Part shown: one piece after another, positions 36,178 through 47,862 of the stretch
Position numbering within the stretch: the first letter of the stretch is position 1
Layout: each line of letters begins with the position of its first letter
DNA from: a phage
Length of the DNA stretch: 64,000 nt
Strand: one strand, 5' to 3'
Sequence record: PQ478073.1
Notes under the pieces: generated by a model
The model's database searches: none
The model's input: the letters and a program-made list of their open reading frames with translations, nothing else
Told to the model about the DNA's origin: nothing
Program-made: the position numbers and the translations under genes

Positions 36178-38841
36178 TTATTGACATGCCTCCAAACGAC
36201 GAGCCATTAACTCCGCACGGCGGGTGGTTTGGCGATACCAAGCAGAATTGCGGATTTGTGCCGCTGCTTGTTTATAATTACCTTTTGCCATTTCTGATAA
36301 CATAGTTTTAAATTTCAATACACCACCTTTACCCATCTGAAATACCATTTGGCATAGTACTTGTTGAGCAAGATAAGGAGTTTTCATGTTATATGAAGCA
36401 TAAATTGATTTGGCATCATAAATTGCTTTACTACTATCACGAACTAACATATCATTTGCTTGTTGTTCAGTTATTCCATCAGAGAAGTTTTCACCGCTAA
36501 CAATTAAGTGACCGTAACCAATAGTTGGATATCCACGACTATCTAAATAACGCCAGAACTTACCATTACGATAATACCCCTTTGCTTGTTGATATTGTAA
36601 TGTACCCTCATATTCTTTTAATTCAGAAATAAACTGAGCATCACCAGGAACAACTTTCCAATCTATGGCTGTTTTATCAACATTACCTATATTATAAGTT
36701 GGTTGCTCAACTGGCGTAGTTGAAACACCACTTCTTTGTGTTCTTCTTCGACGAGGAACATGTCGTGAACCACGTTGTGAATAACCTGTACCAATTGTTT
36801 TAATTTTTGTAGTAACTACTAATTCATCACTATCAACAGAAGGTTGCACTACTGCTTGAGGTGCAGATTGATTGGTTGCTTTTCCTGCAATTAATGTTTT
36901 ATTGGCTGCGTCAGAACCAGTACCAGTTTGAGATGCATAAAATAGACCCGGATCAACTGAACCGCTAAAACCAAGCACGTTAGCTGATGTAACACGTATT
37001 TCAAACTGTATAACACCATTTGCTTTACCAACAACTTGGCCTTTTTGAACAACATCTTTGTTTAATAAATCAGATTGAATATTATAAAATACAGATTTAT
37101 ATCCTGACTTATGTTGTATTAACAGTGCACCATTAGTAATTACTATTACACCACCATCGGGTGCAACTATGTCACCTTTACATTGTATTTCCCATCCAGA
37201 ACGATCTGACTTCCCACCACTTTGTGTTGGAACACCTTTCCCCCAATAACCATATTGGCGAATAGTACCACTACATGGCATGAACATATGTAAACCTTCA
37301 TATGTAATACTATATCCAGTCATCCCAGGGTCAGATGTCATTAAATCTTGAGATTGCACTTGTTCAGTTTCTGATGTATAGTTAACAAACTGAACAGCTT
37401 CAGTGTCTTGTGCTACGGGTAATTCTGGTGATACATCATTTGCTGGTTGTGGTTGTACTGGTGATTCACTAGAACCACTTCCACCACCTTGTCTTGGTGG
37501 TTCAACATAACTACCATGATTTTCAGCGTTAACCCATGCAGCAATATCATGAATGTGTTCATTAAGACCAGCAGATGGTGTTCTAAAGTTTGGTGCAGTA
37601 AATTCAGCAGTACCGCTATTACCACCACTATTAACTGTTAATGTTTGACCACCACCACTAATAATTGCTGATGATGATCCAATTAGGTTTGCAGATGTTG
37701 CGGCAGAAATAGAAGCATTTGAACCAGCCGTAATATCAGTACTGCTACCACTTTGCATACGTAATGATGCAGCAGTAACTAAACGAAGGTCTGCCCCAGA
37801 ATTAACAACAACTTGTCCACCAACTTTTGCATCAAGAGCACCAATTAGATCTAATTTAGTATTTGCACCAACTCGTGCATTGAAATCTTGTCCGGTTTCA
37901 ATATTATATGAACGTCCAGCAGTAATATTAATATCTTGACCAGCACGAATATTAATATTCTTATCACAGTGCATGTCAATATCACCTTCACCAGTGAATT
38001 TTATACGTGCAGTGCCATCACGGTTAATTAAAAGAACATCACCAGTAGCTTCTGATAAAAGAAGTTGTGCACCACTACGTGTTTTTATTACGACACCTTC
38101 ATTTTTACGAGAACCAACACGTGTATCGTTTACTGGGTTATTAAATTGTGTATCTTGATATCCATCTGGGTCTTGATCCCACGTTGGTGCTGTTAATTCC
38201 TCTTCAGTATATCCATCATCAATAATAAAACTATTACCACGTGGCGAAGACATACCATATACAGTACTGGTGGTTTGTCGAGTACTACTACGATTCGCCA
38301 ACCCAGCTTCTTCGTCATATAAAAGGTTTTGCTTTTTAAGACCTGCGATAATTGGAACGTTAGCATATTTGTCTTGCATATCGGTAGTGATAGTGTTACG
38401 ATCATAGTCAGTAACAGGAAGTGGCATATCAGTTCCACCATAATTACTTACTTCAGTTGCCATGCCTGGAACCATAGTATTCATACGCTGGTCATATACA
38501 CAACCAATCCAATATGCTTGGAATGTACGGGCTTGTGCAAAAATTACAACAACTGTACACCCTACGTCTGGTGGTACTGCCCAAAAACCGTATCCTTTTG
38601 GATATTGACCATATGCATCAGCACTTGGAATACCTGGTGTTTTACCAGCAAAAGGAGACATGTAAGATGCTTCTATCCATGATTCTTTTGAGTTTTTATC
38701 ACTTTGAGAACCTTGTATCCAAACTTTCAGTTTTCCTGATTTAGTTGGATCTCTGTTATCCATAACAGTTGCTAACTGCGGATAAGATGGGTCAAAACGA
38801 CCCAACTGCTGTTGTGCATACTTTTTACTTGTATCTGCCAT
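36178..38841 (-). CDS. 5: baseplate central spike, gp5-like, with C-terminal T4-type lysozyme domain (887 aa)
   Basis: N-terminal OB-like region (GKLKVWIQG...); VgrG/gp5-like beta-helical repeats (INIRAGQDINITAGRSYNIETGQDFNARVGANTKLDL...); M23/LytM-like segment lacking the usual His/Asp zinc ligands (~36994-37323); C-terminal GH24 lysozyme (TIGYGHL, QMVFQMGKGGV; ~36181-36663). Confidence 0.75.
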   Translation of the reverse strand: MADTSKKYAQQQLGRFDPSYPQLATVMDNRDPTKSGKLKVWIQGSQSDKNSKESWIEASYMSPFAGKTPGIPSADAYGQYPKGYGFWAVPPDVGCTVVVIFAQARTFQAYWIGCVYDQRMNTMVPGMATEVSNYGGTDMPLPVTDYDRNTITTDMQDKYANVPIIAGLKKQNLLYDEEAGLANRSSTRQTTSTVYGMSSPRGNSFIIDDGYTEEELTAPTWDQDPDGYQDTQFNNPVNDTRVGSRKNEGVVIKTRSGAQLLLSEATGDVLLINRDGTARIKFTGEGDIDMHCDKNINIRAGQDINITAGRSYNIETGQDFNARVGANTKLDLIGALDAKVGGQVVVNSGADLRLVTAASLRMQSGSSTDITAGSNASISAATSANLIGSSSAIISGGGQTLTVNSGGNSGTAEFTAPNFRTPSAGLNEHIHDIAAWVNAENHGSYVEPPRQGGGSGSSESPVQPQPANDVSPELPVAQDTEAVQFVNYTSETEQVQSQDLMTSDPGMTGYSITYEGLHMFMPCSGTIRQYGYWGKGVPTQSGGKSDRSGWEIQCKGDIVAPDGGVIVITNGALLIQHKSGYKSVFYNIQSDLLNKDVVQKGQVVGKANGVIQFEIRVTSANVLGFSGSVDPGLFYASQTGTGSDAANKTLIAGKATNQSAPQAVVQPSVDSDELVVTTKIKTIGTGYSQRGSRHVPRRRRTQRSGVSTTPVEQPTYNIGNVDKTAIDWKVVPGDAQFISELKEYEGTLQYQQAKGYYRNGKFWRYLDSRGYPTIGYGHLIVSGENFSDGITEQQANDMLVRDSSKAIYDAKSIYASYNMKTPYLAQQVLCQMVFQMGKGGVLKFKTMLSEMAKGNYKQAAAQIRNSAWYRQTTRRAELMARRLEACQ

Positions 38842-42161: not shown

Positions 42162-42207
42162 CTTTTTGATTCTCCATAATAAGGGAACATTTGATGTATT
42201 TATACGT

Positions 42208-42235
42208 GGGACAAACTGCTTTTTGGTGCTATAAT
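42208..42235 (+). promoter_or_regulatory. sigma70-type promoter with extended -10, driving the gp55-like gene
   Basis: -35 GGGACA (42208-42213), 16-nt spacer, TGcTATAAT (42227-42235). Confidence 0.5.
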
Positions 42236-42292: not shown

Positions 42293-43132
42293 ATGACAAA
42301 TAGACCAAAGCGTAAAAAGTATCTCAATAATGCTGATTTACTTCGTGAAATACAAAAAAGTAAAATTTCATATTGCTGGTTATTAGACAAATCATATAGT
42401 ATGTATGATTATATTGTTTTTCATGAGTCAGAAATTACTGCTGAGTTACTAGAAAAAGCTAAGGCAGCACGAATTAAACGACTGAACAATGAAATGCTTG
42501 ATAGTATTCGTGAAAAGGAAAATATGAGTGCTAAAAAAGCTAAAGAATATGCAGATGAACACAATTTAGTTATCACTGACGTTCCAATTGATGAAGTTGT
42601 TATTCGTGTTATTACAGATGAACATATTCCACCAGATACTAGAGTTAACTTTGAACCATTCAAGCATTATATTGTAGATAATGAAGGTATTCTCTATGAA
42701 GTTTGTCGTTCTCACTGGAAAGGCGACCTTGAAACTGGTGAATTCAGTACTGTTCATGGTAAAATTACAAATGAACTTGGGAAGATGTTCATTAAACTTG
42801 CAGAGGAAATCTCACACAAATCTAATTACAGAAACTATACATACTTAGATGAAATGATGGGTGATGCAAGAATACAATTAGTTAAAAACGCACTTCTCTT
42901 TAAAGAGAGCATTCTTTATAAAAAAGATAAACCAGCAGTTCAGCTAAATCCTTTCTCTTACTATACATCATTCGTAAACAATAGTTTTCGTTCTATATTG
43001 AATAGTGAGAAAAATGTTCGAAATATACGTGATGATTTACTTGAAATGCATGGCTTTACGCCATCACATACACGTCAAATTGAAATTGAATTGAACATGA
43101 TTGAAAGGAAAAATGAAGATGGCTCTGTTTGA
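42293..43132 (+). CDS. 55: late-transcription sigma factor, gp55-like (279 aa)
   Basis: N-terminus KRKKYLNNADLLREIQKSK matches T4 gp55 (KPKYNYVNNKELLQAI); lies directly upstream of gp47/gp46 as in T4; ~90 aa longer than T4 gp55. Confidence 0.65.
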   Translation: MTNRPKRKKYLNNADLLREIQKSKISYCWLLDKSYSMYDYIVFHESEITAELLEKAKAARIKRLNNEMLDSIREKENMSAKKAKEYADEHNLVITDVPIDEVVIRVITDEHIPPDTRVNFEPFKHYIVDNEGILYEVCRSHWKGDLETGEFSTVHGKITNELGKMFIKLAEEISHKSNYRNYTYLDEMMGDARIQLVKNALLFKESILYKKDKPAVQLNPFSYYTSFVNNSFRSILNSEKNVRNIRDDLLEMHGFTPSHTRQIEIELNMIERKNEDGSV

Positions 43133-44150
43133 TAAAGCAATTACATTCACTGATATTCATTTAGGTTTAAAGAATAACAGCAAGCAACACAATGAAGATT
43201 GTTTAAACTTCATTAAATTCATGATTGAGGTAGCTAAAAAAAATAATATCAAAGTTTGTGTTTTTATGGGAGATTATTTTCATAATAGAAGTAATATCAA
43301 TATCCAAACACTAAACTATGGTTTACAAATTCTTCAATTATTAAATGATAATTTTGAAAAAGTATATTTTTTAGTAGGCAACCATGATATGTATCATAAA
43401 AACAAACGTGATATAACAAGTATCAATATGGCTCAAGTTTATGAAAATATAGAATTCATTAATGAAATTACAACATTTGATGATTGTACTTTCATTCCAT
43501 TTATGATTGAAGATGAATATAAGTTGTTACCTCAACTAAAAAGTAAGTATGTTTTTGGTCACTTAGAGTTACCAGGTTACTTGCTTAACAAGATGGTAGA
43601 AATGCCTGATCATGGAAAAGAAACAGAAGGTTCTTTTGGTGGTTGTGAGTATGTTTTTAGTGGACATTTTCATAAAAGGCAGTCAAAAACAACTTCAAAA
43701 GGAACTCGTGTAGTTTATACTGGTAATTGTTTTCCACATAATTTTTCCGATACATGGGATGATGCAAGAGGTGTAATGATCCTTGAACATGGTAAAGAAC
43801 CTATTTTCAAATCATGGGAACATGCACCAAAATATAGAACATTTACACTTTCAGAATTGTTAACTGATCCTGGTTATTATCTTCAAGATAATACAATATC
43901 AAAAGTTCAAGTTGATATATCAATAACAACAGATGAGATTAGTTTTATTCGTGATACATTTACTAAACTTTACAACATTAGAGAGTTTAATGTTGTAACG
44001 AGCAAGCAAAGTATCGCAGAATTAATTGAAGATGGTGTTAGTTTTGAAAGTACTGAATCAGTTGATGAGATTGTGTTGCAGCAAATTATGGAAATTGACT
44101 CACCCATGTTTGATAAAAATCTTCTAATCCAAATTTACAGATCGTTATAA
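43119..44150 (+). CDS. 47: recombination/repair nuclease subunit, gp47 / Mre11-SbcD-like (343 aa from ATG 43119)
   Basis: Calcineurin-like phosphoesterase motifs: TDIHLG, GDYFH, LVGNHDMYH, SGHFH. Track start 43101 is TTG. Confidence 0.88.
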   Translation: MALFDKAITFTDIHLGLKNNSKQHNEDCLNFIKFMIEVAKKNNIKVCVFMGDYFHNRSNINIQTLNYGLQILQLLNDNFEKVYFLVGNHDMYHKNKRDITSINMAQVYENIEFINEITTFDDCTFIPFMIEDEYKLLPQLKSKYVFGHLELPGYLLNKMVEMPDHGKETEGSFGGCEYVFSGHFHKRQSKTTSKGTRVVYTGNCFPHNFSDTWDDARGVMILEHGKEPIFKSWEHAPKYRTFTLSELLTDPGYYLQDNTISKVQVDISITTDEISFIRDTFTKLYNIREFNVVTSKQSIAELIEDGVSFESTESVDEIVLQQIMEIDSPMFDKNLLIQIYRSL

Positions 44151-44158
44151 GGGACTAT

Positions 44159-46306
44159 ATGCTAAACATTACACGTATATCTATGAGGAACTTCTTTTCA
44201 TTTGGTAATGCACCACAATCAATTGAATTGAATGGTTCTGACATTTCATTAGTACTGGGTCAAAATAATGATGCAGTTATTGAAGGTGGTGACAGCACCG
44301 GACGTCGAAATGGTGTCGGGAAAAGTGCTATTATTCAAGGATTAGTTTTTGGATTATTTGGGAAAAGTATTGGTAATGATATTAAAATTCCTAACTTAGT
44401 CAATAAAACTAATGGTAAAAATTGTGAAGTAGTTGTAGAGTTTGAAAAAGATGGTGTACAATATCTGGTTGAACGTGGGAGAAGTCCCACGTATTTCAAT
44501 TTTGTTACTTTAGGGAAAGATAATAAAATTGAAGATGAATCAAGGGGAGAAAAGAAAGACACACAAGAAGATTTGAATGAAATTCTTGGTATATCTCAAT
44601 TATTATTTGAACATATTGTAGTACTGAATGCTAACGTTGAACCTTTCTTAGCTTTATCCACACAAAAACAACGTGATATGATAGAAGAACTTCTTGGAAT
44701 AACACAGTTGACGGAAAAAGCTGAAATGCTAAAGGAGATGTATAAGGATACTAAACGTTTAGCCGAACAAGAAAAGTTCAAAAATGAAACTGTAGCTGCA
44801 AGTAATGAACGTATTCAAAAAAGTATTGAGACACTACAAGAACAGGCAAACCAGTTTGAAATTGATAAAAATAATAGAGTATCTAAGTTAAATGAAGAGT
44901 TGAATATATATAAAACTTTAGACTTTAATGACCTCTATGAAGCTGCTGATATAAAAGAGAAAGCTCTTATTCATAACGCAAAGCGTGGGGAAATCGAACG
45001 CCGTGTACAAGAGTTGGCTTTAAAATTTGATGCATATGACCGTGAACTTGAAAGATCTAAAAGAGCATTAAATCTAAGCATTGATAAGCTAAAAACTATT
45101 GATATTAGTGCAGAATTGGAAAATCATAATGAGTTGGAGATATGGAAACAGTTAGAGGGTATTCTAAAAGAGAATAATAACCAAAAACGTTTCAAAGAAC
45201 AAAAACTAAACTCACTAAAAATAGCTTTAAAAGGATATGAATGTTCAATTAATGCTGAAATTGACAAATTATCAACAGTTGAAAACAGCAAATGTCCACT
45301 TTGTATGTCTGAATTAGAACATAACGAACATACTTCTTCAATTAAAGACAAAATCCAAAGTACTATTAATGATCTTCAAGCTAAAATTGATAGTTCTTCT
45401 TCTGAAATTGAAACATTACTTCAAGAAATTGATAGTATTGAGATTTTTGATATGCCACCTAAGCCTGTGACATATTATAATACACTTTCAGAAGCACAAA
45501 TGCATGAACATAAGCTTCAAGAATTGGTCAGAAAGAGTGAAGAAGAACAAATAAACATCTATGCAAATGAACTTATGTCATCATATGATGAACTTAACTC
45601 ATATGAACTAATGGAAGTTCCAGATACATTAAACAAATATGAAGTTAAAGAGTTAGAAATGACTGTAAATTCATTATCACAGCAATTAGATCGTGAATTG
45701 AAGACTACTAACACATTTATTAGCCAAATTAATACCCTGAAGACTGATTCTTTAGTACCAATCGATTATAGCGACTATAATAATCTTGATAAAATGTCAA
45801 ATCACCAAGATTTCTTGGTTAAATTACTTTTAAACAAGGATTCTTATGTCCGTAAACGTATTATTGAGCAAAATATCTCATATTTGAATACACGACTTCA
45901 GTACTATATCGATATGTGCGGTTCTGAGCATAATGTTGTGTTTTTGAATGATTTGAGTGTTGAAATTGAGAAGAGTGGACAGTACTTTGACTATAAACAG
46001 CTTAGTAGAGGTGAGCGTACAAGGGTAAACATCGCATTATCTTGTGCTTTCCGTGATACATATGAGTCATTATACCAAAGTATTAATATTCTTATCATTG
46101 ATGAGATGATTGACCAAGGTCTTGACTCAAGTGGTGTTCTACGTGTGTGGTCTATCTTCCAAGATATGGCTGCTGTACGTGGTAAGAACGTTTATGCTAT
46201 TTCCCACAGAGAAGAGTTACTATCTAAGACTGAAAAAATCCTCAAAGTTGTTAAAGAGGACGGTTTCAGTACTGTTGAATATGCAACCCTTGACGATGTT
46301 TTCTAA
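44159..46306 (+). CDS. 46: recombination/repair ATPase subunit, gp46 / Rad50-SbcC-like (715 aa)
   Basis: Walker A GRRNGVGKS; long central coiled coil with a CPLC zinc hook-like motif; signature LSRGERTRVNIAL and Walker B LIIDEMID. Confidence 0.88.
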   Translation: MLNITRISMRNFFSFGNAPQSIELNGSDISLVLGQNNDAVIEGGDSTGRRNGVGKSAIIQGLVFGLFGKSIGNDIKIPNLVNKTNGKNCEVVVEFEKDGVQYLVERGRSPTYFNFVTLGKDNKIEDESRGEKKDTQEDLNEILGISQLLFEHIVVLNANVEPFLALSTQKQRDMIEELLGITQLTEKAEMLKEMYKDTKRLAEQEKFKNETVAASNERIQKSIETLQEQANQFEIDKNNRVSKLNEELNIYKTLDFNDLYEAADIKEKALIHNAKRGEIERRVQELALKFDAYDRELERSKRALNLSIDKLKTIDISAELENHNELEIWKQLEGILKENNNQKRFKEQKLNSLKIALKGYECSINAEIDKLSTVENSKCPLCMSELEHNEHTSSIKDKIQSTINDLQAKIDSSSSEIETLLQEIDSIEIFDMPPKPVTYYNTLSEAQMHEHKLQELVRKSEEEQINIYANELMSSYDELNSYELMEVPDTLNKYEVKELEMTVNSLSQQLDRELKTTNTFISQINTLKTDSLVPIDYSDYNNLDKMSNHQDFLVKLLLNKDSYVRKRIIEQNISYLNTRLQYYIDMCGSEHNVVFLNDLSVEIEKSGQYFDYKQLSRGERTRVNIALSCAFRDTYESLYQSINILIIDEMIDQGLDSSGVLRVWSIFQDMAAVRGKNVYAISHREELLSKTEKILKVVKEDGFSTVEYATLDDVF

Positions 46307-46317
46307 TTAAAGATAAA

Positions 46318-46340
46318 GGGAGCCTTAGCTCCCTTTTTTT
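46318..46340. terminator. bidirectional intrinsic terminator
   Basis: GGGAGC-ctta-GCTCCC hairpin with T7 run (46334-46340) on plus and an A-rich run upstream; overlaps the stop of the convergent minus-strand gene. Confidence 0.75.
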
Positions 46341-46816
46341 ATATCAACCATATTTAATTTACCGTCCTTAATCAGCTTTCTAGCTTGCTTTACACGAGCA
46401 GTAGTGTTACTACCAGGGACAACTCCTAACCCTTCCAGAATCGCGTTTTGCTGTGTTGCTGGAAGCCTTTTAAACTTATTAACATCCACAGTTAGTGCAG
46501 TGTGATGTATAACTTGTTCATCGTCAGGAATGCTGTTATTACGCTCTAAGTAATCAGCAAGATTTCTGAGTACCTCATATAATGGTTTATCAGTTAAGTG
46601 CTTCATATATCGATTGAAGCTGTTTTGTACCTTTCCTTCCCAAGCATTGACTTCATTTTGAAGAACTTGTCTACAATGTTGGTTACCATAGTGGTAGTGA
46701 TCCAGTACTGGTTTAGTTATTGGTTCTTTAATTATAGGATCTATTCCATTTTGTTTCTTTAGCAATTCGTTTCGATAGTTTGCAGCATCCTTACTATCTT
46801 TTAATCTTTTTTTCAT
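46325..46816 (-). CDS. Endo VII-like (T4 gp49 family) protein lacking the Cys4 zinc cluster (163 aa)
   Basis: Aligns by eye to T4 Endo VII: QNG; LDHYHYGN vs LDHDHELNG; NAWEG vs NAAEG; FNR; L.NL..YL. The CxxC...CxxC zinc-site cysteines are absent. Confidence 0.5.
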   Translation of the reverse strand: MKKRLKDSKDAANYRNELLKKQNGIDPIIKEPITKPVLDHYHYGNQHCRQVLQNEVNAWEGKVQNSFNRYMKHLTDKPLYEVLRNLADYLERNNSIPDDEQVIHHTALTVDVNKFKRLPATQQNAILEGLGVVPGSNTTARVKQARKLIKDGKLNMVDIKKGS

Positions 46817-46846
46817 AATTCCTCACCAAACTATTTGTTATCAAAA

Positions 46847-46854
46847 TATTTATA
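46847..46854 (-). promoter_or_regulatory. candidate late promoter (TATAAATA) for Endo VII-like gene
   Basis: Exact minus-strand TATAAATA ~30 nt upstream of ATG 46816. Confidence 0.4.
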
Positions 46855-46908
46855 GATTAGTTATTTGCAATATTTTAAGTACTTAATGAATATTTTTATA
46901 AAAATAGT

Positions 46909-46936
46909 GAGACAACTTTAAAGTTTGTGCTATAAT
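46909..46936 (+). promoter_or_regulatory. orphan sigma70-type promoter with extended -10, facing an ORF-free region
   Basis: -35 GAGACA (46909-46914), 16-nt spacer, TGcTATAAT (46928-46936); no ORF of 60 aa or more downstream on the plus strand for ~700 bp. Confidence 0.5.
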
Positions 46937-46942
46937 GTTTGT

Positions 46943-47396
46943 TGTAGTAATGACAATCCTGTTGAATGCAGAAATGCATATAAATTAGAACCTGATCCTA
47001 TCGAAAATGTAGATGGCAGATGAGCAGTTCAACAGTGCGATGAGCAAAAGAAACCCGTTAGATGTGGGCATAGTTTGAACCCCTCACGGCAATGCGGCTC
47101 AATAAAGAACTCCGATAAGCATACAGAGAGTTCCTAGATAGACATATAAGGATCGCACCTTACCAGATTTGCTAAGGGAGTTTATTAAGTGATTTTAATA
47201 AACAGCCTGAAGTTTGATTGTATAGACTTTCAGGTGAGTGTCAGGATGATTAAGACTGACGACCGTTGCACATGACTGCGATAGAGAGAAACAGAGCAAC
47301 CCGCTTTCGTTCTTAATATATTTTTAAGAAATTCGCAATACAATAAATGCTGAAACCATCAGCGTCAAGAAATAGAGACTTCATTGTCTCTTTTTT
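46943..47396 (+). ncRNA. candidate ~450-nt structured non-coding RNA (unknown class)
   Basis: Bounded by the promoter at 46909-46936 and a hairpin+T-run at 47374-47396; only ORFs of 21 codons or fewer; locally higher GC than surroundings; several local stems (e.g. CCTGAA/TTCAGG 47206-47234, GTCAG/CTGAC 47240-47260). No tRNA T-loop/acceptor pattern found. Confidence 0.35.
47374..47396 (+). terminator. intrinsic terminator (plus strand) ending the candidate ncRNA
   Basis: AGAGAC-ttcatt-GTCTCT hairpin followed by TTTTTTATT. Confidence 0.5.
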
Positions 47397-47404
47397 ATTG
47401 TCTT

Positions 47405-47424
47405 CATTCCCCTGCGGGGGGATG
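47405..47424. other. GC-rich hairpin (CATTCCCC-tgcg-GGGGGATG) not followed by a T-run on either strand
   Basis: 8-bp stem with G6 run, conspicuous in an AT-rich genome; possible RNA processing/stability element or protein-binding site. Confidence 0.3.
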
Positions 47425-47490
47425 AAAATGTCCTCAACAAATCCCGTCAAGTATTAAATCTTTTAAAGTTCTTTATAATTAATTTAATTA

Positions 47491-47555
47491 AATGAATATG
47501 AGTTACGTAGTAACGAATATTCTTCAGCTAACGAATGAAATGAGTTAGATGAATC
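47491..47555. repeat. iteron-like direct repeats in AT-rich spacer
   Basis: AA(C/T)GAAT at 47491, 47512 and 47530 (spacings 21 and 18 bp) with a partial (A)TGAAT at 47549; TAACGAAT twice (47511-47518, 47529-47536); ATGAGTTA twice (47498-47505, 47540-47547). Confidence 0.35.
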
Positions 47556-47612
47556 CAATAATATTAAAATTAATCCTTTCATAATTCAATTCAAATAATT
47601 CTGTAGTTTAAA

Positions 47613-47641
47613 ACCAAAAAAAACCAGCAACAATGTGCTGG
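47613..47641 (-). terminator. intrinsic terminator (minus strand) after the 69-aa gene
   Basis: CCAGCA-caatgt-GCTGG hairpin (plus 47623-47640); on the minus strand it is followed by TTTTTTTTGG (complement of 47613-47622). Confidence 0.75.
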
Positions 47642-47652
47642 CTATATGAAAA

Positions 47653-47862
47653 TTAGTGCTTCTCGTTTTGTTTTTTAATTTTTTTATTAAAAGACTTAAC
47701 TAATAAGTCTCTATCTATTAATGGCATATTAAGGAGTGTTCCATAGTCAATGTTATCCATATATACAGAACATTCCATTAGTGCATTTTTGATTTCTGAC
47801 TTATTCAGTTCTATCTCCTTCAGTACTTCTTGTATTTCTTCAGGAGATGACTGGAGAAGCAT
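47653..47862 (-). CDS. hypothetical small protein (69 aa)
   Basis: Start overlaps the upstream stop (TAATG at 47860-47864), implying translational coupling; product unknown. Confidence 0.45.
   Translation of the reverse strand: MLLQSSPEEIQEVLKEIELNKSEIKNALMECSVYMDNIDYGTLLNMPLIDRDLLVKSFNKKIKKQNEKH

Follow-up and report, generated by a model that had tools for sequence, protein, structure and literature searches.

The window analysed here is a 64,000-nucleotide (nt) stretch of phage DNA (sequence record PQ478073.1). Positions 46908 to ~47450 of its + strand hold an intergenic unit that the comparison of homologues identifies as a gene for a large structured noncoding RNA (ncRNA), and our searches indicate that the RNA family to which it belongs is previously undescribed. 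The unit measures ~450 nt to a terminator-like hairpin and ~510 nt when a conserved 3′ block is included. A Rad50-like gp46 homologue and an EndoVII-like gene lie to its left, and a 69-amino-acid (aa) open reading frame (ORF) and a T4_baseplate-family gene, both convergent with the unit, lie to its right. A sequence-only reading of this DNA, made without database searches, had proposed an independent unit for a ~450-nt structured RNA of no known class, and this proposal was supported by conservation, covariation and the absence of the RNA from Rfam. The same reading had named the EndoVII-like neighbour correctly, but the right side, which it had taken for the head module, is occupied by the T4_baseplate-family gene. 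Its allusion to the intron-bearing nrd genes of T4 proved irrelevant, because the unit lies between genes, under a promoter of its own, and matched no intron model.

The fold was assessed on a MAFFT-based alignment of 48 non-redundant homologues, with counts made per column pair. Helices were derived from stacked covarying column pairs and by inspection, and were then mapped onto this alignment. As controls, the 3′ partners were slid by 1–3 columns, and the columns were shuffled 500 times. Of 4229 cells, 83.7% were paired, compared with 40–45% when the partners were slid, and 67 of the 95 pairs showed changes on both sides (624 cells). The covariation score was 0.40, whereas the slid controls gave 0.08–0.14, and no column shuffle (0/500) reached any of the observed measures. 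The sequence-only reading had noted several local stems; the 454-nt RNA of the window had a minimum free energy of −111 kcal/mol (z = −2.53), and none of 100 shuffled sequences folded as well. RNAalifold, run independently, recovered P2, P3, P3a, P4, P9, P10, P11 and P13, and at least 13 helices and a pseudoknot were found in total. The segment was also richer in GC than its surroundings, as had been remarked earlier (0.42 at 47000-47299 versus 0.24–0.33 in the flanks).

In the well-aligned helices, G:U combinations were far more frequent than A:C combinations (224 versus 33), indicating that the window + strand is the RNA strand. The comparison further indicated that the element is not protein-coding. 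The + strand of the window contains ORFs of 32 aa (TTG start, 46925-47023), 28 aa (GTG start, 47189-47275) and 36 aa (ATG start, 47347-47457), and ORFs of up to 45 aa occur on the − strand. The earlier statement that no ORF exceeds 21 codons therefore understated their length, although none of these ORFs, on either strand, is conserved. The longest + strand ORF per copy had a median of 40 aa, no ORF was conserved in frame across copies, and homologous nucleotides were read in differing frames. Pairwise indel lengths modulo 3 were distributed as 145, 521 and 181, that is, with no triplet bias. A conserved small ORF, which the sequence-only reading had named as an observation that would speak for a protein, was thus not found.

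Two candidates for a hidden small protein gene were considered, namely the 28-aa GTG ORF that follows the invariant UAAGGGAG (47173-47180) and a ~10-codon ORF that follows the G-run of the 3′ block. The first has an invariant, Shine-Dalgarno-like sequence upstream, with GUG 8 nt downstream of it in the window, and at least 90% of copies have an AUG after the G-run. Against this, no part of the alignment is as rich in indels as the stretch after UAAGGGAG, where the frames differ between copies. The mini-ORF after the G-run stops within 1–2 codons in some copies, has no AUG in others and shifts its frame relative to the conserved CGUCA, and the indels show no triplet bias. Coding by either ORF was rejected on these frame changes and indels, and we regard a small protein as the least likely reading of the locus, with a negligible probability.

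Architecture of the RNA

The RNA is laid out as three junction domains (P1-P1a-P2; P3-P3a-P3b; and P9-P10-P11 with the pseudoknot), together with the hairpins P4–P8, P12 and P13. Domain 1 (46959-47035) is a three-way junction composed of P1 (46959-46966 with 47028-47035), the P1a hairpin with a GAAA loop (46967-46978) and the P2 hairpin with the conserved loop GAAAAUGUA (46992-47019), after which comes the conserved junction GAUGAG. P1 was misaligned by MAFFT; at least 6 base pairs (bp) were present in 46 of the 48 sequences, in 32 strand combinations. P2 was 93% paired, with changes on both sides in 7 of its 8 pairs. Domain 2 (47041-47101) consists of P3 (47041-47045 with 47097-47101), P3a (47055-47058 with 47086-47089) and the variable tip P3b, and its conserved strands are GAAACCCGU and CACGGCAAUGCGGC. 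Both P3 and P3a were 97.9% paired, and 4 of the 5 pairs of P3 had changed on both sides.

A series of hairpins connects Domain 2 with Domain 3. P4, followed by the junction GAUAGACAUAU, spans 47107-47133; all six of its pairs change on both sides, and more than 90% of its cells were paired. P5 (47147-47162) covaries between TAAGG/CCTTA, TAGG/CCTA and TGAG/CTCA. The AAGGGA within UAAGGGAG is invariant in all 48 sequences and is followed by the variable hairpin P6 (47180-47203). The long hairpin P7 (47206-47234), in which 10 of 11 pairs change on both sides, is a 12–14-bp hairpin in every copy except those of one ortholog group, and P8 (47240-47260) was 90% paired.

Domain 3 (47261-47369) is the most conserved part of the RNA. 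It comprises P9 (47277-47281 with 47333-47337), P10 (47284-47288 with 47304-47308), P11 (47310-47330) and a pseudoknot between GUUGC at 47265-47269 and GCAAC at 47296-47300 in the P10 loop. Pairing was 100% in the pseudoknot, P9 and P10, in which the pairs with changes on both sides numbered 3, 4 and 4, respectively. The exchanges in this domain included GUUGC/GCAAC to GUUAC/GUAAC, GUCAU/AUGAC and GUUGU/ACAAC. P12 (47349-47363), which precedes CGUCAAG, was dropped as a conserved helix because its register is not kept across paralogues.

Several unpaired segments were invariant, namely GAAAAnGUA, GAUGAG, ACCCGU, CACGGCAAUGCGGC, GAUAGACAU, UAAGGGAG, CGACCGUUG and GAAACnG..AACCCGC. A peripheral module (..UACAAUAUAGAUCCGUCC.., closed by AAAUUU/AAAUUU) occurs 0–2 times per copy at two sites, P6 and P11; at P6 it is inserted by paralogues. 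This portable module of ~30 nt has the form AAUUUU-UACAAUAUAG(A/U)U(C/G)CGUCC-AAAAUU (for example, in sequences L023, 1359-1458, and L007, 4700-4760), and it is absent from the window copy. Its conserved loop suggests a tertiary-contact or protein-binding element, and its mobility would be typical of swappable tertiary-contact elements. Invariant junction nucleotides, a pseudoknot and site-switching modules, all of which the alignment shows, are hallmarks of RNAs with a tertiary architecture.

A family in Rak2-like jumbo phages

Escherichia jumbo phage PBECO4 (KC295538, 304719-305559, minus strand) matches the window region with 100% identity, and the sequences of 121Q, phAPEC6 and other Asteriusvirus jumbo phages are nearly identical to it. 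A sensitive search with a 460-nt segment found the RNA in 71 phage records. These are without exception Rak2-like jumbo phages of 310–386 kb, and their hosts are Escherichia, Salmonella, Klebsiella, Erwinia, Yersinia, Cronobacter, Pectobacterium, Serratia and Xanthomonas. In IMG/VR, a stricter first DNA pattern recovered 121Q only, and a looser pattern was used instead. This degenerate motif scan gave 84 loci, of which 65 were family members by nhmmer, all on jumbo contigs of ~350 kb or on fragments of these. In a second motif scan, of metagenomes, 57 of the 58 loci were family members. The alignment to relatives that had been advised as a check thus showed conservation in the 71 phage records and in many metagenomic contigs, with stems that covary strongly.

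The RNA occupies 4–5 separate places per record, and at least 2 in RaK2-like phages. Five places each were found in GAP32, CBB, Serratia BF and Yersinia fHe-Yen9-04, and four copies in PBECO4, where the other three lie at 38027-38506, 93767-94126 and 195097-195493 of the record (first 200 kb examined). All PBECO4 copies are on the strand of the window copy, and each of the four occupies an otherwise unannotated intergenic gap of 600–740 bp. The paralogues consist of long conserved blocks with variable insertions between them, and each has its own TGnTATAAT promoter. Clustering showed that ortholog groups recur across genomes: PBECO4 and 121Q have four groups, and GAP32, CBB and Serratia BF have five. 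EndoVII is the neighbour of paralogue A, the window copy, in PBECO4, GAP32, fHe-Yen9-04, UE-S1 and the uncultured contig L048, indicating that the paralogues are old and positionally stable. The 5′ half of paralogue A (46990-47180) is 85% identical to that of PBECO4 paralogue C (L004, 45304-45493), whereas the 3′ halves are ~70% identical, which suggests that paralogues of one genome have partly undergone gene conversion with each other.

Multiple copies, some of them in mobile islands, would also be expected of a selfish or relic element without phage function, such as a degenerate group I or II intron without an ORF or a mobile RNA or DNA repeat, which would have spread through the genome and into islands. 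The higher identity of the 5′ halves of A and C than is seen elsewhere likewise suggests exchange between copies. However, a search at E up to 10 gave no match to any intron model, and every copy lies between genes under a conserved promoter of its own, with neither exons nor target-site duplications. Furthermore, the paralogues are old and keep their positions across genera, as copy A does beside EndoVII, and purifying selection maintains pairing in all of them. We consider such an element very unlikely.

Comparison with known RNAs gave no assignment. None of the 4227 covariance models of Rfam 15 had a hit at the gathering threshold in the whole window, which answers the Rfam check that had been suggested for the locus. 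At E up to 10, the region 46800-47700 yielded only sub-threshold matches to terminator-like small RNAs outside the core; those to Arrc14 and CyaR at 47609-47693 merely reflect a terminator at 47622-47643. Nine other family members had no Rfam family hits, whereas the signal recognition particle RNA and thiamine pyrophosphate riboswitch that served as controls in the same loci were detected. ARAGORN detected neither tRNA nor tmRNA genes, whether in the window or in 14 loci with other copies. The group I intron model (RF00028) did not match even at E up to 10, and the unit is intergenic, with its own conserved promoter in all copies. No group II intron model, including RF00029, matched, and the helices follow one another in a line, as three junction domains and hairpins. 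Bacterial RNase P RNA had no Rfam match either; ACAGAGCAACCCGCUUUCG, which we take to resemble the 3′ region of M1 RNA, is explained instead by the local hairpin P10 and a different pseudoknot. The ROOL, GOLLD and OLE covariance models did not match, and full-text literature searches for this RNA in Rak2-like phages gave no description. Within these searches, the family matches no described RNA class.

In kind, the family comes nearest to ROOL and GOLLD, large RNAs that phages encode and that have no known function (PMC12286853). Like them, the family consists of independent noncoding genes of several hundred nt, encoded by phages or prophages, with a complex pseudoknotted fold and no known partner or function. 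It differs from them in that their models match it in neither sequence nor structure, and in that ROOL and GOLLD often adjoin tRNA islands, whereas no tRNA gene was found near any copy of this family that was scanned. It also differs in having 4–5 diverged paralogues per genome, a conserved phage-specific promoter and a block beyond the terminator in each copy, and members in chromosomal integrative islands. The jumbo phage PA5oct, whose clade is related to 121Q, PBECO4 and RaK2, produces four orphan long noncoding RNAs (lncRNAs) of 236–619 nt without ORFs, two of which account for 1–5% of phage reads (PMC7318152). These transcripts, ncRNA001–004, resemble the present family in stemming from ORF-less regions of a related phage, but they come with no reported structure, family or promoters. 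By nhmmer, ncRNA001 and ncRNA002 showed no similarity to the family (ncRNA003 and ncRNA004 were not compared).

Promoter, terminator and conserved 3′ block

At the 5′ boundary, similarity between paralogues starts at the promoter (46908-46936, + strand), which consists of TGAGACA (46908-46914), a 13-nt spacer and the extended −10 element TGcTATAAT (46928-46936). The extended −10 promoter seen by the sequence-only reading was also found by a promoter scan, as GAGACA-16-TATAAT with TG before the −10 element at 46909-46936 (10 of 12 matches). Promoter-like sites overall were at chance level in this AT-rich DNA (17 found versus 17.1 expected), and the window promoter is judged real because it is conserved among homologues and not because of the scan. 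TATAAT was at least 98% conserved, the −35 TG..AC and the −15 TG were at least 90% conserved, and the pattern TG[AG][AG]AC-N(~16)-TGnTATAAT was kept in all 48 homologues and also in island copies. The start of transcription is inferred to lie near 46943.

In phage CBB, a class of 18 promoters per genome, described as divergent RpoD-like, combines a classic −10 with a −35 of TGAAACG, lies mostly 5′ of DNA-synthesis genes and was also seen in GAP32 (PMC5259590). By its sequence, the window promoter falls into this class. The sole other instance in the window is TGGGACA-N13-TGcTATAAT at 42207-42235 (+ strand), just 5′ of the operon 42293-46306 (gp47/gp46-like), the last gene of which is the Rad50-like gp46 homologue; this position fits the published tie of the class to DNA-metabolism genes.

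The terminator-like hairpin noticed earlier at 47374-47396 (+ strand) was likewise recovered by a scan, as AGAGAC-UUCAUU-GUCUCU followed by a U-run (stem 47374-47391, 6 bp, loop of 6, TTTTT). It is likely to form the 3′ end of the main RNA species in the window copy. Terminator-like sites were enriched in the region (6 found versus 1.1 expected). Two others were seen: a bidirectional hairpin at 46315-46336 between the convergent gp46-like and EndoVII-like genes, and the − strand terminator at 47622-47643, which serves the convergent 69-aa and baseplate-like genes. A hairpin with a T-run is found at the position of the window terminator in 29 of the 48 copies and is absent in the other 19, so that it is itself a variable insert.

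The unit does not end at 47396, where the sequence-only reading had placed its end, because conservation continues for ~55 nt, to ~47450. The conserved 3′ block (47400-47450, + strand) contains a pyrimidine tract, P13 (47407-47412 with 47416-47421), an invariant G-run and GAUGAAAAUG..CAACAAAUCCCGUCA. As UUCAUUCCCCUGCGGGGGGAUGAAAAUG..CAACAAAUCyCGUCA, it is present in every copy, whether or not a terminator precedes it, and the similarity between phage copies and an Escherichia coli chromosomal copy ends exactly after it. P13 was 97% paired, and its C-to-U changes opposite the invariant G-run give U:G pairs, which are allowed in a + strand RNA only. Together with the excess of G:U over A:C, these changes indicate selection on the + strand RNA that includes the block beyond the terminator. 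A long-range pairing of the block with the core was sought and rejected, as no pair changed on both sides and the GCG/CGU candidate varied on one side only. The 5′ arm of P13 is often CCUCC(U), which is anti-Shine-Dalgarno-like, opposite the G-run (47407-47421), and UAAGGGAG resembles a Shine-Dalgarno sequence; a ribosome-related interaction of either is conceivable.

Further downstream, two hairpins with the motif ACGAA(G/U)(G)A (47494-47522 and 47528-47548, + strand) were read from the sequence as a looser accessory part. Within 260 nt after the block, ACGAA occurred 1.44 times versus 0.26 in the background, and ACGNAGYG 0.42 times versus 0.016. Motifs of the ACGAA(G)UG(A) type, often in hairpin loops, were 6- to 26-fold enriched on the + strand only, with a peak 26–104 nt past the block.

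The arrangement around the terminator bears on the main rival to the role that we favour. The RNA may be a read-through module acting in cis, by processive antitermination or attenuation, in which it would be transcribed from the phage-type promoter and would then, alone or with a phage factor, make the polymerase ignore the terminator and carry on across the 3′ block into genes downstream. The order promoter, structured RNA, terminator and conserved block is the rule, and read-through would account for the block that lies beyond the terminator; moreover, the 19 of 48 copies without a terminator are read through anyway. In one ortholog group, the conserved CGUCAG forms the 5′ arm of the terminator stem and has the invariant GAC at the foot of Domain 3 as an alternative pairing partner. 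On the other hand, convergent genes follow the window copy and its orthologue in GAP32, which leaves these two nothing to read into, and the terminator-like hairpins found 5′ of the RNA in 13 of 48 copies could not be overcome by an element that is still untranscribed. An antiterminator pairing of the P7 5′ strand with the terminator 5′ strand was striking in several lineages. It was rejected as a general feature, because it was no better within than between sequences (−5.5 versus −4.9 kcal/mol, p = 0.2).

Size is a further point against it. The known antitermination RNAs put of HK022 and EAR of Bacillus measure 70–120 nt, and together with lambda nut they fall within 60–120 nt and have two or three stems. 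They share with the present family a promoter-proximal structured RNA followed by a terminator and a presence in several operons per phage, whereas this RNA has ~450 nt, at least 13 helices and a pseudoknot, and the window copy has no downstream operon. On the phage evidence and that from the islands described below, we rate the read-through reading as rather doubtful.

The G-run and the sequence beyond it raise another possibility, that of an RNA-primed replication origin comparable to T4 oriF/oriG or ColE1 RNA II, in which a hybrid of the transcript at the G-run and the AT-rich region would prime the leading strand. The 4–5 copies would then be the phage origins. Long origin transcripts are known in both systems, and T4 has several, driven by middle promoters. 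The likeness lies in a dedicated promoter and a long transcript (folded in ColE1), followed by a G-run and an AT-rich region. In agreement with an origin, the promoter class is tied to DNA-synthesis genes, the invariant run of six G precedes a very AT-rich stretch (GC 0.24 at 47450-47749), short ACGAAG-type motifs recur downstream, and there are several copies per genome. However, covariation, the pseudoknot and the invariant junctions show selection on a folded RNA and not on a hybrid. In contrast to the known origins, a terminator intervenes between the RNA and the presumed unwinding region in most copies (29 of 48), and P13 shows the G-run paired within the RNA. The GC skew has no inflection at the locus, and PBECO4 has a more classical iteron-like array elsewhere. 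This array, at ~152536-152634 of the PBECO4 record (L004, 2536-2634), has ~12 tandem copies of the 8-nt TAGCCGTC. It lies in a 2-kb stretch without annotated genes (151710-153706) and with no Rfam hit in the surrounding 8 kb, and it could be an iteron, origin or packaging-type array.

Copies in bacterial islands and the proposed role

A full copy of the RNA was found in 2 of 5426 complete E. coli genomes. It is 70% identical to the window copy and 80.6% identical to copy A of Serratia phage BF and of an Erwinia phage. In strain LR-29-1 (NZ_AP027515.1; L215, 7958-18302), the island that carries it measures ~10 kb and adjoins ffs, and the island unit falls within 3,477,000-3,481,500 of the record. 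This island encodes a tyrosine integrase split by IS3, a membrane protein, a small secreted protein, a DuOB-DUF488-mSLOG/DUF4326 cluster (PADLOC candidate PDC-M45), a serine recombinase and DUF2188 (PDC-S16). The 700-nt noncoding spacer that follows the RNA in this island holds ATCGATCGTT repeats (~12960-13020 of L215).

Related arrangements were seen in other Enterobacteriaceae. In a Buttiauxella metagenome-assembled genome (MAG), the order is integrase, RNA, convergent CI-like repressor, Cro-like, membrane-protein, secreted-protein and invertase genes, and in an Enterobacteriaceae MAG it is thiM, RNA and CI-like repressor. Metagenomic contigs show ppdD, a large serine integrase, the RNA, a 165-aa ORF, CI, Cro, the membrane protein and the secreted protein. 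The islands have CI/Cro, membrane-protein, secreted-protein and invertase genes in common. Island copies keep a phage-type promoter, TGAAAC-N15/16-TGnTATA(A/C)T. In two metagenomic Enterobacteriaceae contigs (L231 and L259), two tandem promoters of this type, TGAAAC-N16-TGGTATAAT, stand 5′ of the island RNA. The island proteins of 318 aa and 286 aa had no tblastn match in the phage collection, and no plasmid matched the RNA. A scan of a bacterial genome collection gave at least 120 loci, and among the matches listed 118 were chance hits in GC-rich genomes, so that no absence of the family from other bacteria can be concluded from it.

Both the read-through reading and the origin reading extend to the islands. 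In the former, the island module would be a switch triggered by the jumbo phage, which overrides cI and turns on cro and the membrane-protein operon. It is in keeping with this that the islands have the order int, RNA, (cI reversed, cro forward), transmembrane protein and secreted protein, with the RNA co-oriented with the operon, and that they retain the phage-type promoter. In the latter, islands without replication genes would pirate the phage origin for replication by the helper phage. No replication initiator was found among the island proteins scanned, several of which had no match to any family. PICMIs, small satellites of large virulent phages that package concatemers, provide a precedent for satellites of such phages (PMC10803314). 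Taking the phage and island evidence together, we consider an origin improbable.

We tentatively favour, at somewhat below even confidence, a role in trans as an ornate RNA or ribonucleoprotein. This preference is based on the degree of conserved tertiary-type architecture, on the terminator of the window copy, on the lack of a co-oriented target gene 3′ of paralogue A in PBECO4 and GAP32, and on the precedent of ROOL, GOLLD and the abundant orphan lncRNAs of PA5oct. In this model, the host RNA polymerase would transcribe the gene from a promoter of the phage class used for DNA metabolism or middle expression, and the transcript of the window copy would mostly end at the intrinsic terminator. 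The RNA would then act in trans, as an ornate scaffold, an oligomer or a catalytic core, bound to at least one partner encoded by the phage. The paralogues would have a common core and differ in their swappable peripheral modules, and the island copy would respond to, exploit or interfere with a jumbo phage during infection. The pRNA of phi29, which has 174 nt and is single-copy, is a known case of a structured RNA that is encoded by a phage, oligomerises and acts in trans in a phage machine; it has no sequence relation to the family, and a packaging role for the family would be pure speculation.

Several observations weigh against a simple gene for a trans-acting RNA. The conserved block and the ACGAA hairpins lie downstream of the terminator, and the 19 of 48 copies without a terminator imply that many transcripts must be longer. 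A terminator-like hairpin with a U-run directly follows the predicted start in 13 of the 48 copies (the window copy not among them), which is odd for a simple stable RNA gene. The island RNA is always co-oriented with the downstream membrane-protein operon and convergent with cI, an arrangement that fits a cis role at least as well. In addition, the start site and the 3′ end are predictions in every family member, and the phage-encoded partner protein is postulated.

A broader possibility, which we hold to be speculative and less probable than the trans role as such, is that the RNA forms a new kind of machine common to virulent jumbo phages and to chromosomal 'hitcher' or defence islands. It would be either an ornate oligomer or catalyst of 4–5 paralogous subunits or a read-through module that depends on a phage factor, and the islands would have captured the unit together with its promoter as a sensor or decoy.

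Very few classes of large RNA in bacteria and phages have such a conserved tertiary-type architecture, and each of those found earlier (RNase P, group I and II introns, OLE, ROOL and GOLLD) opened a line of research. It is unusual for a genome to keep four or five paralogues of such ancient divergence, and this needs an explanation. More than 100 family sequences can be used for covariation analysis, and the presence of the family in the culturable E. coli phages PBECO4, 121Q and phAPEC6 makes it directly testable. The position of the RNA unit in islands, beside CI/Cro switches and candidate defence genes, links a phage RNA to the conflict between phages and islands, and the island copies could show by what means islands sense virulent jumbo phages or exploit them. 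If the machine common to phages and islands exists, the captured unit would let islands detect an infection by Rak2-like phages, or sabotage it, and turn on their membrane-protein effector operon.

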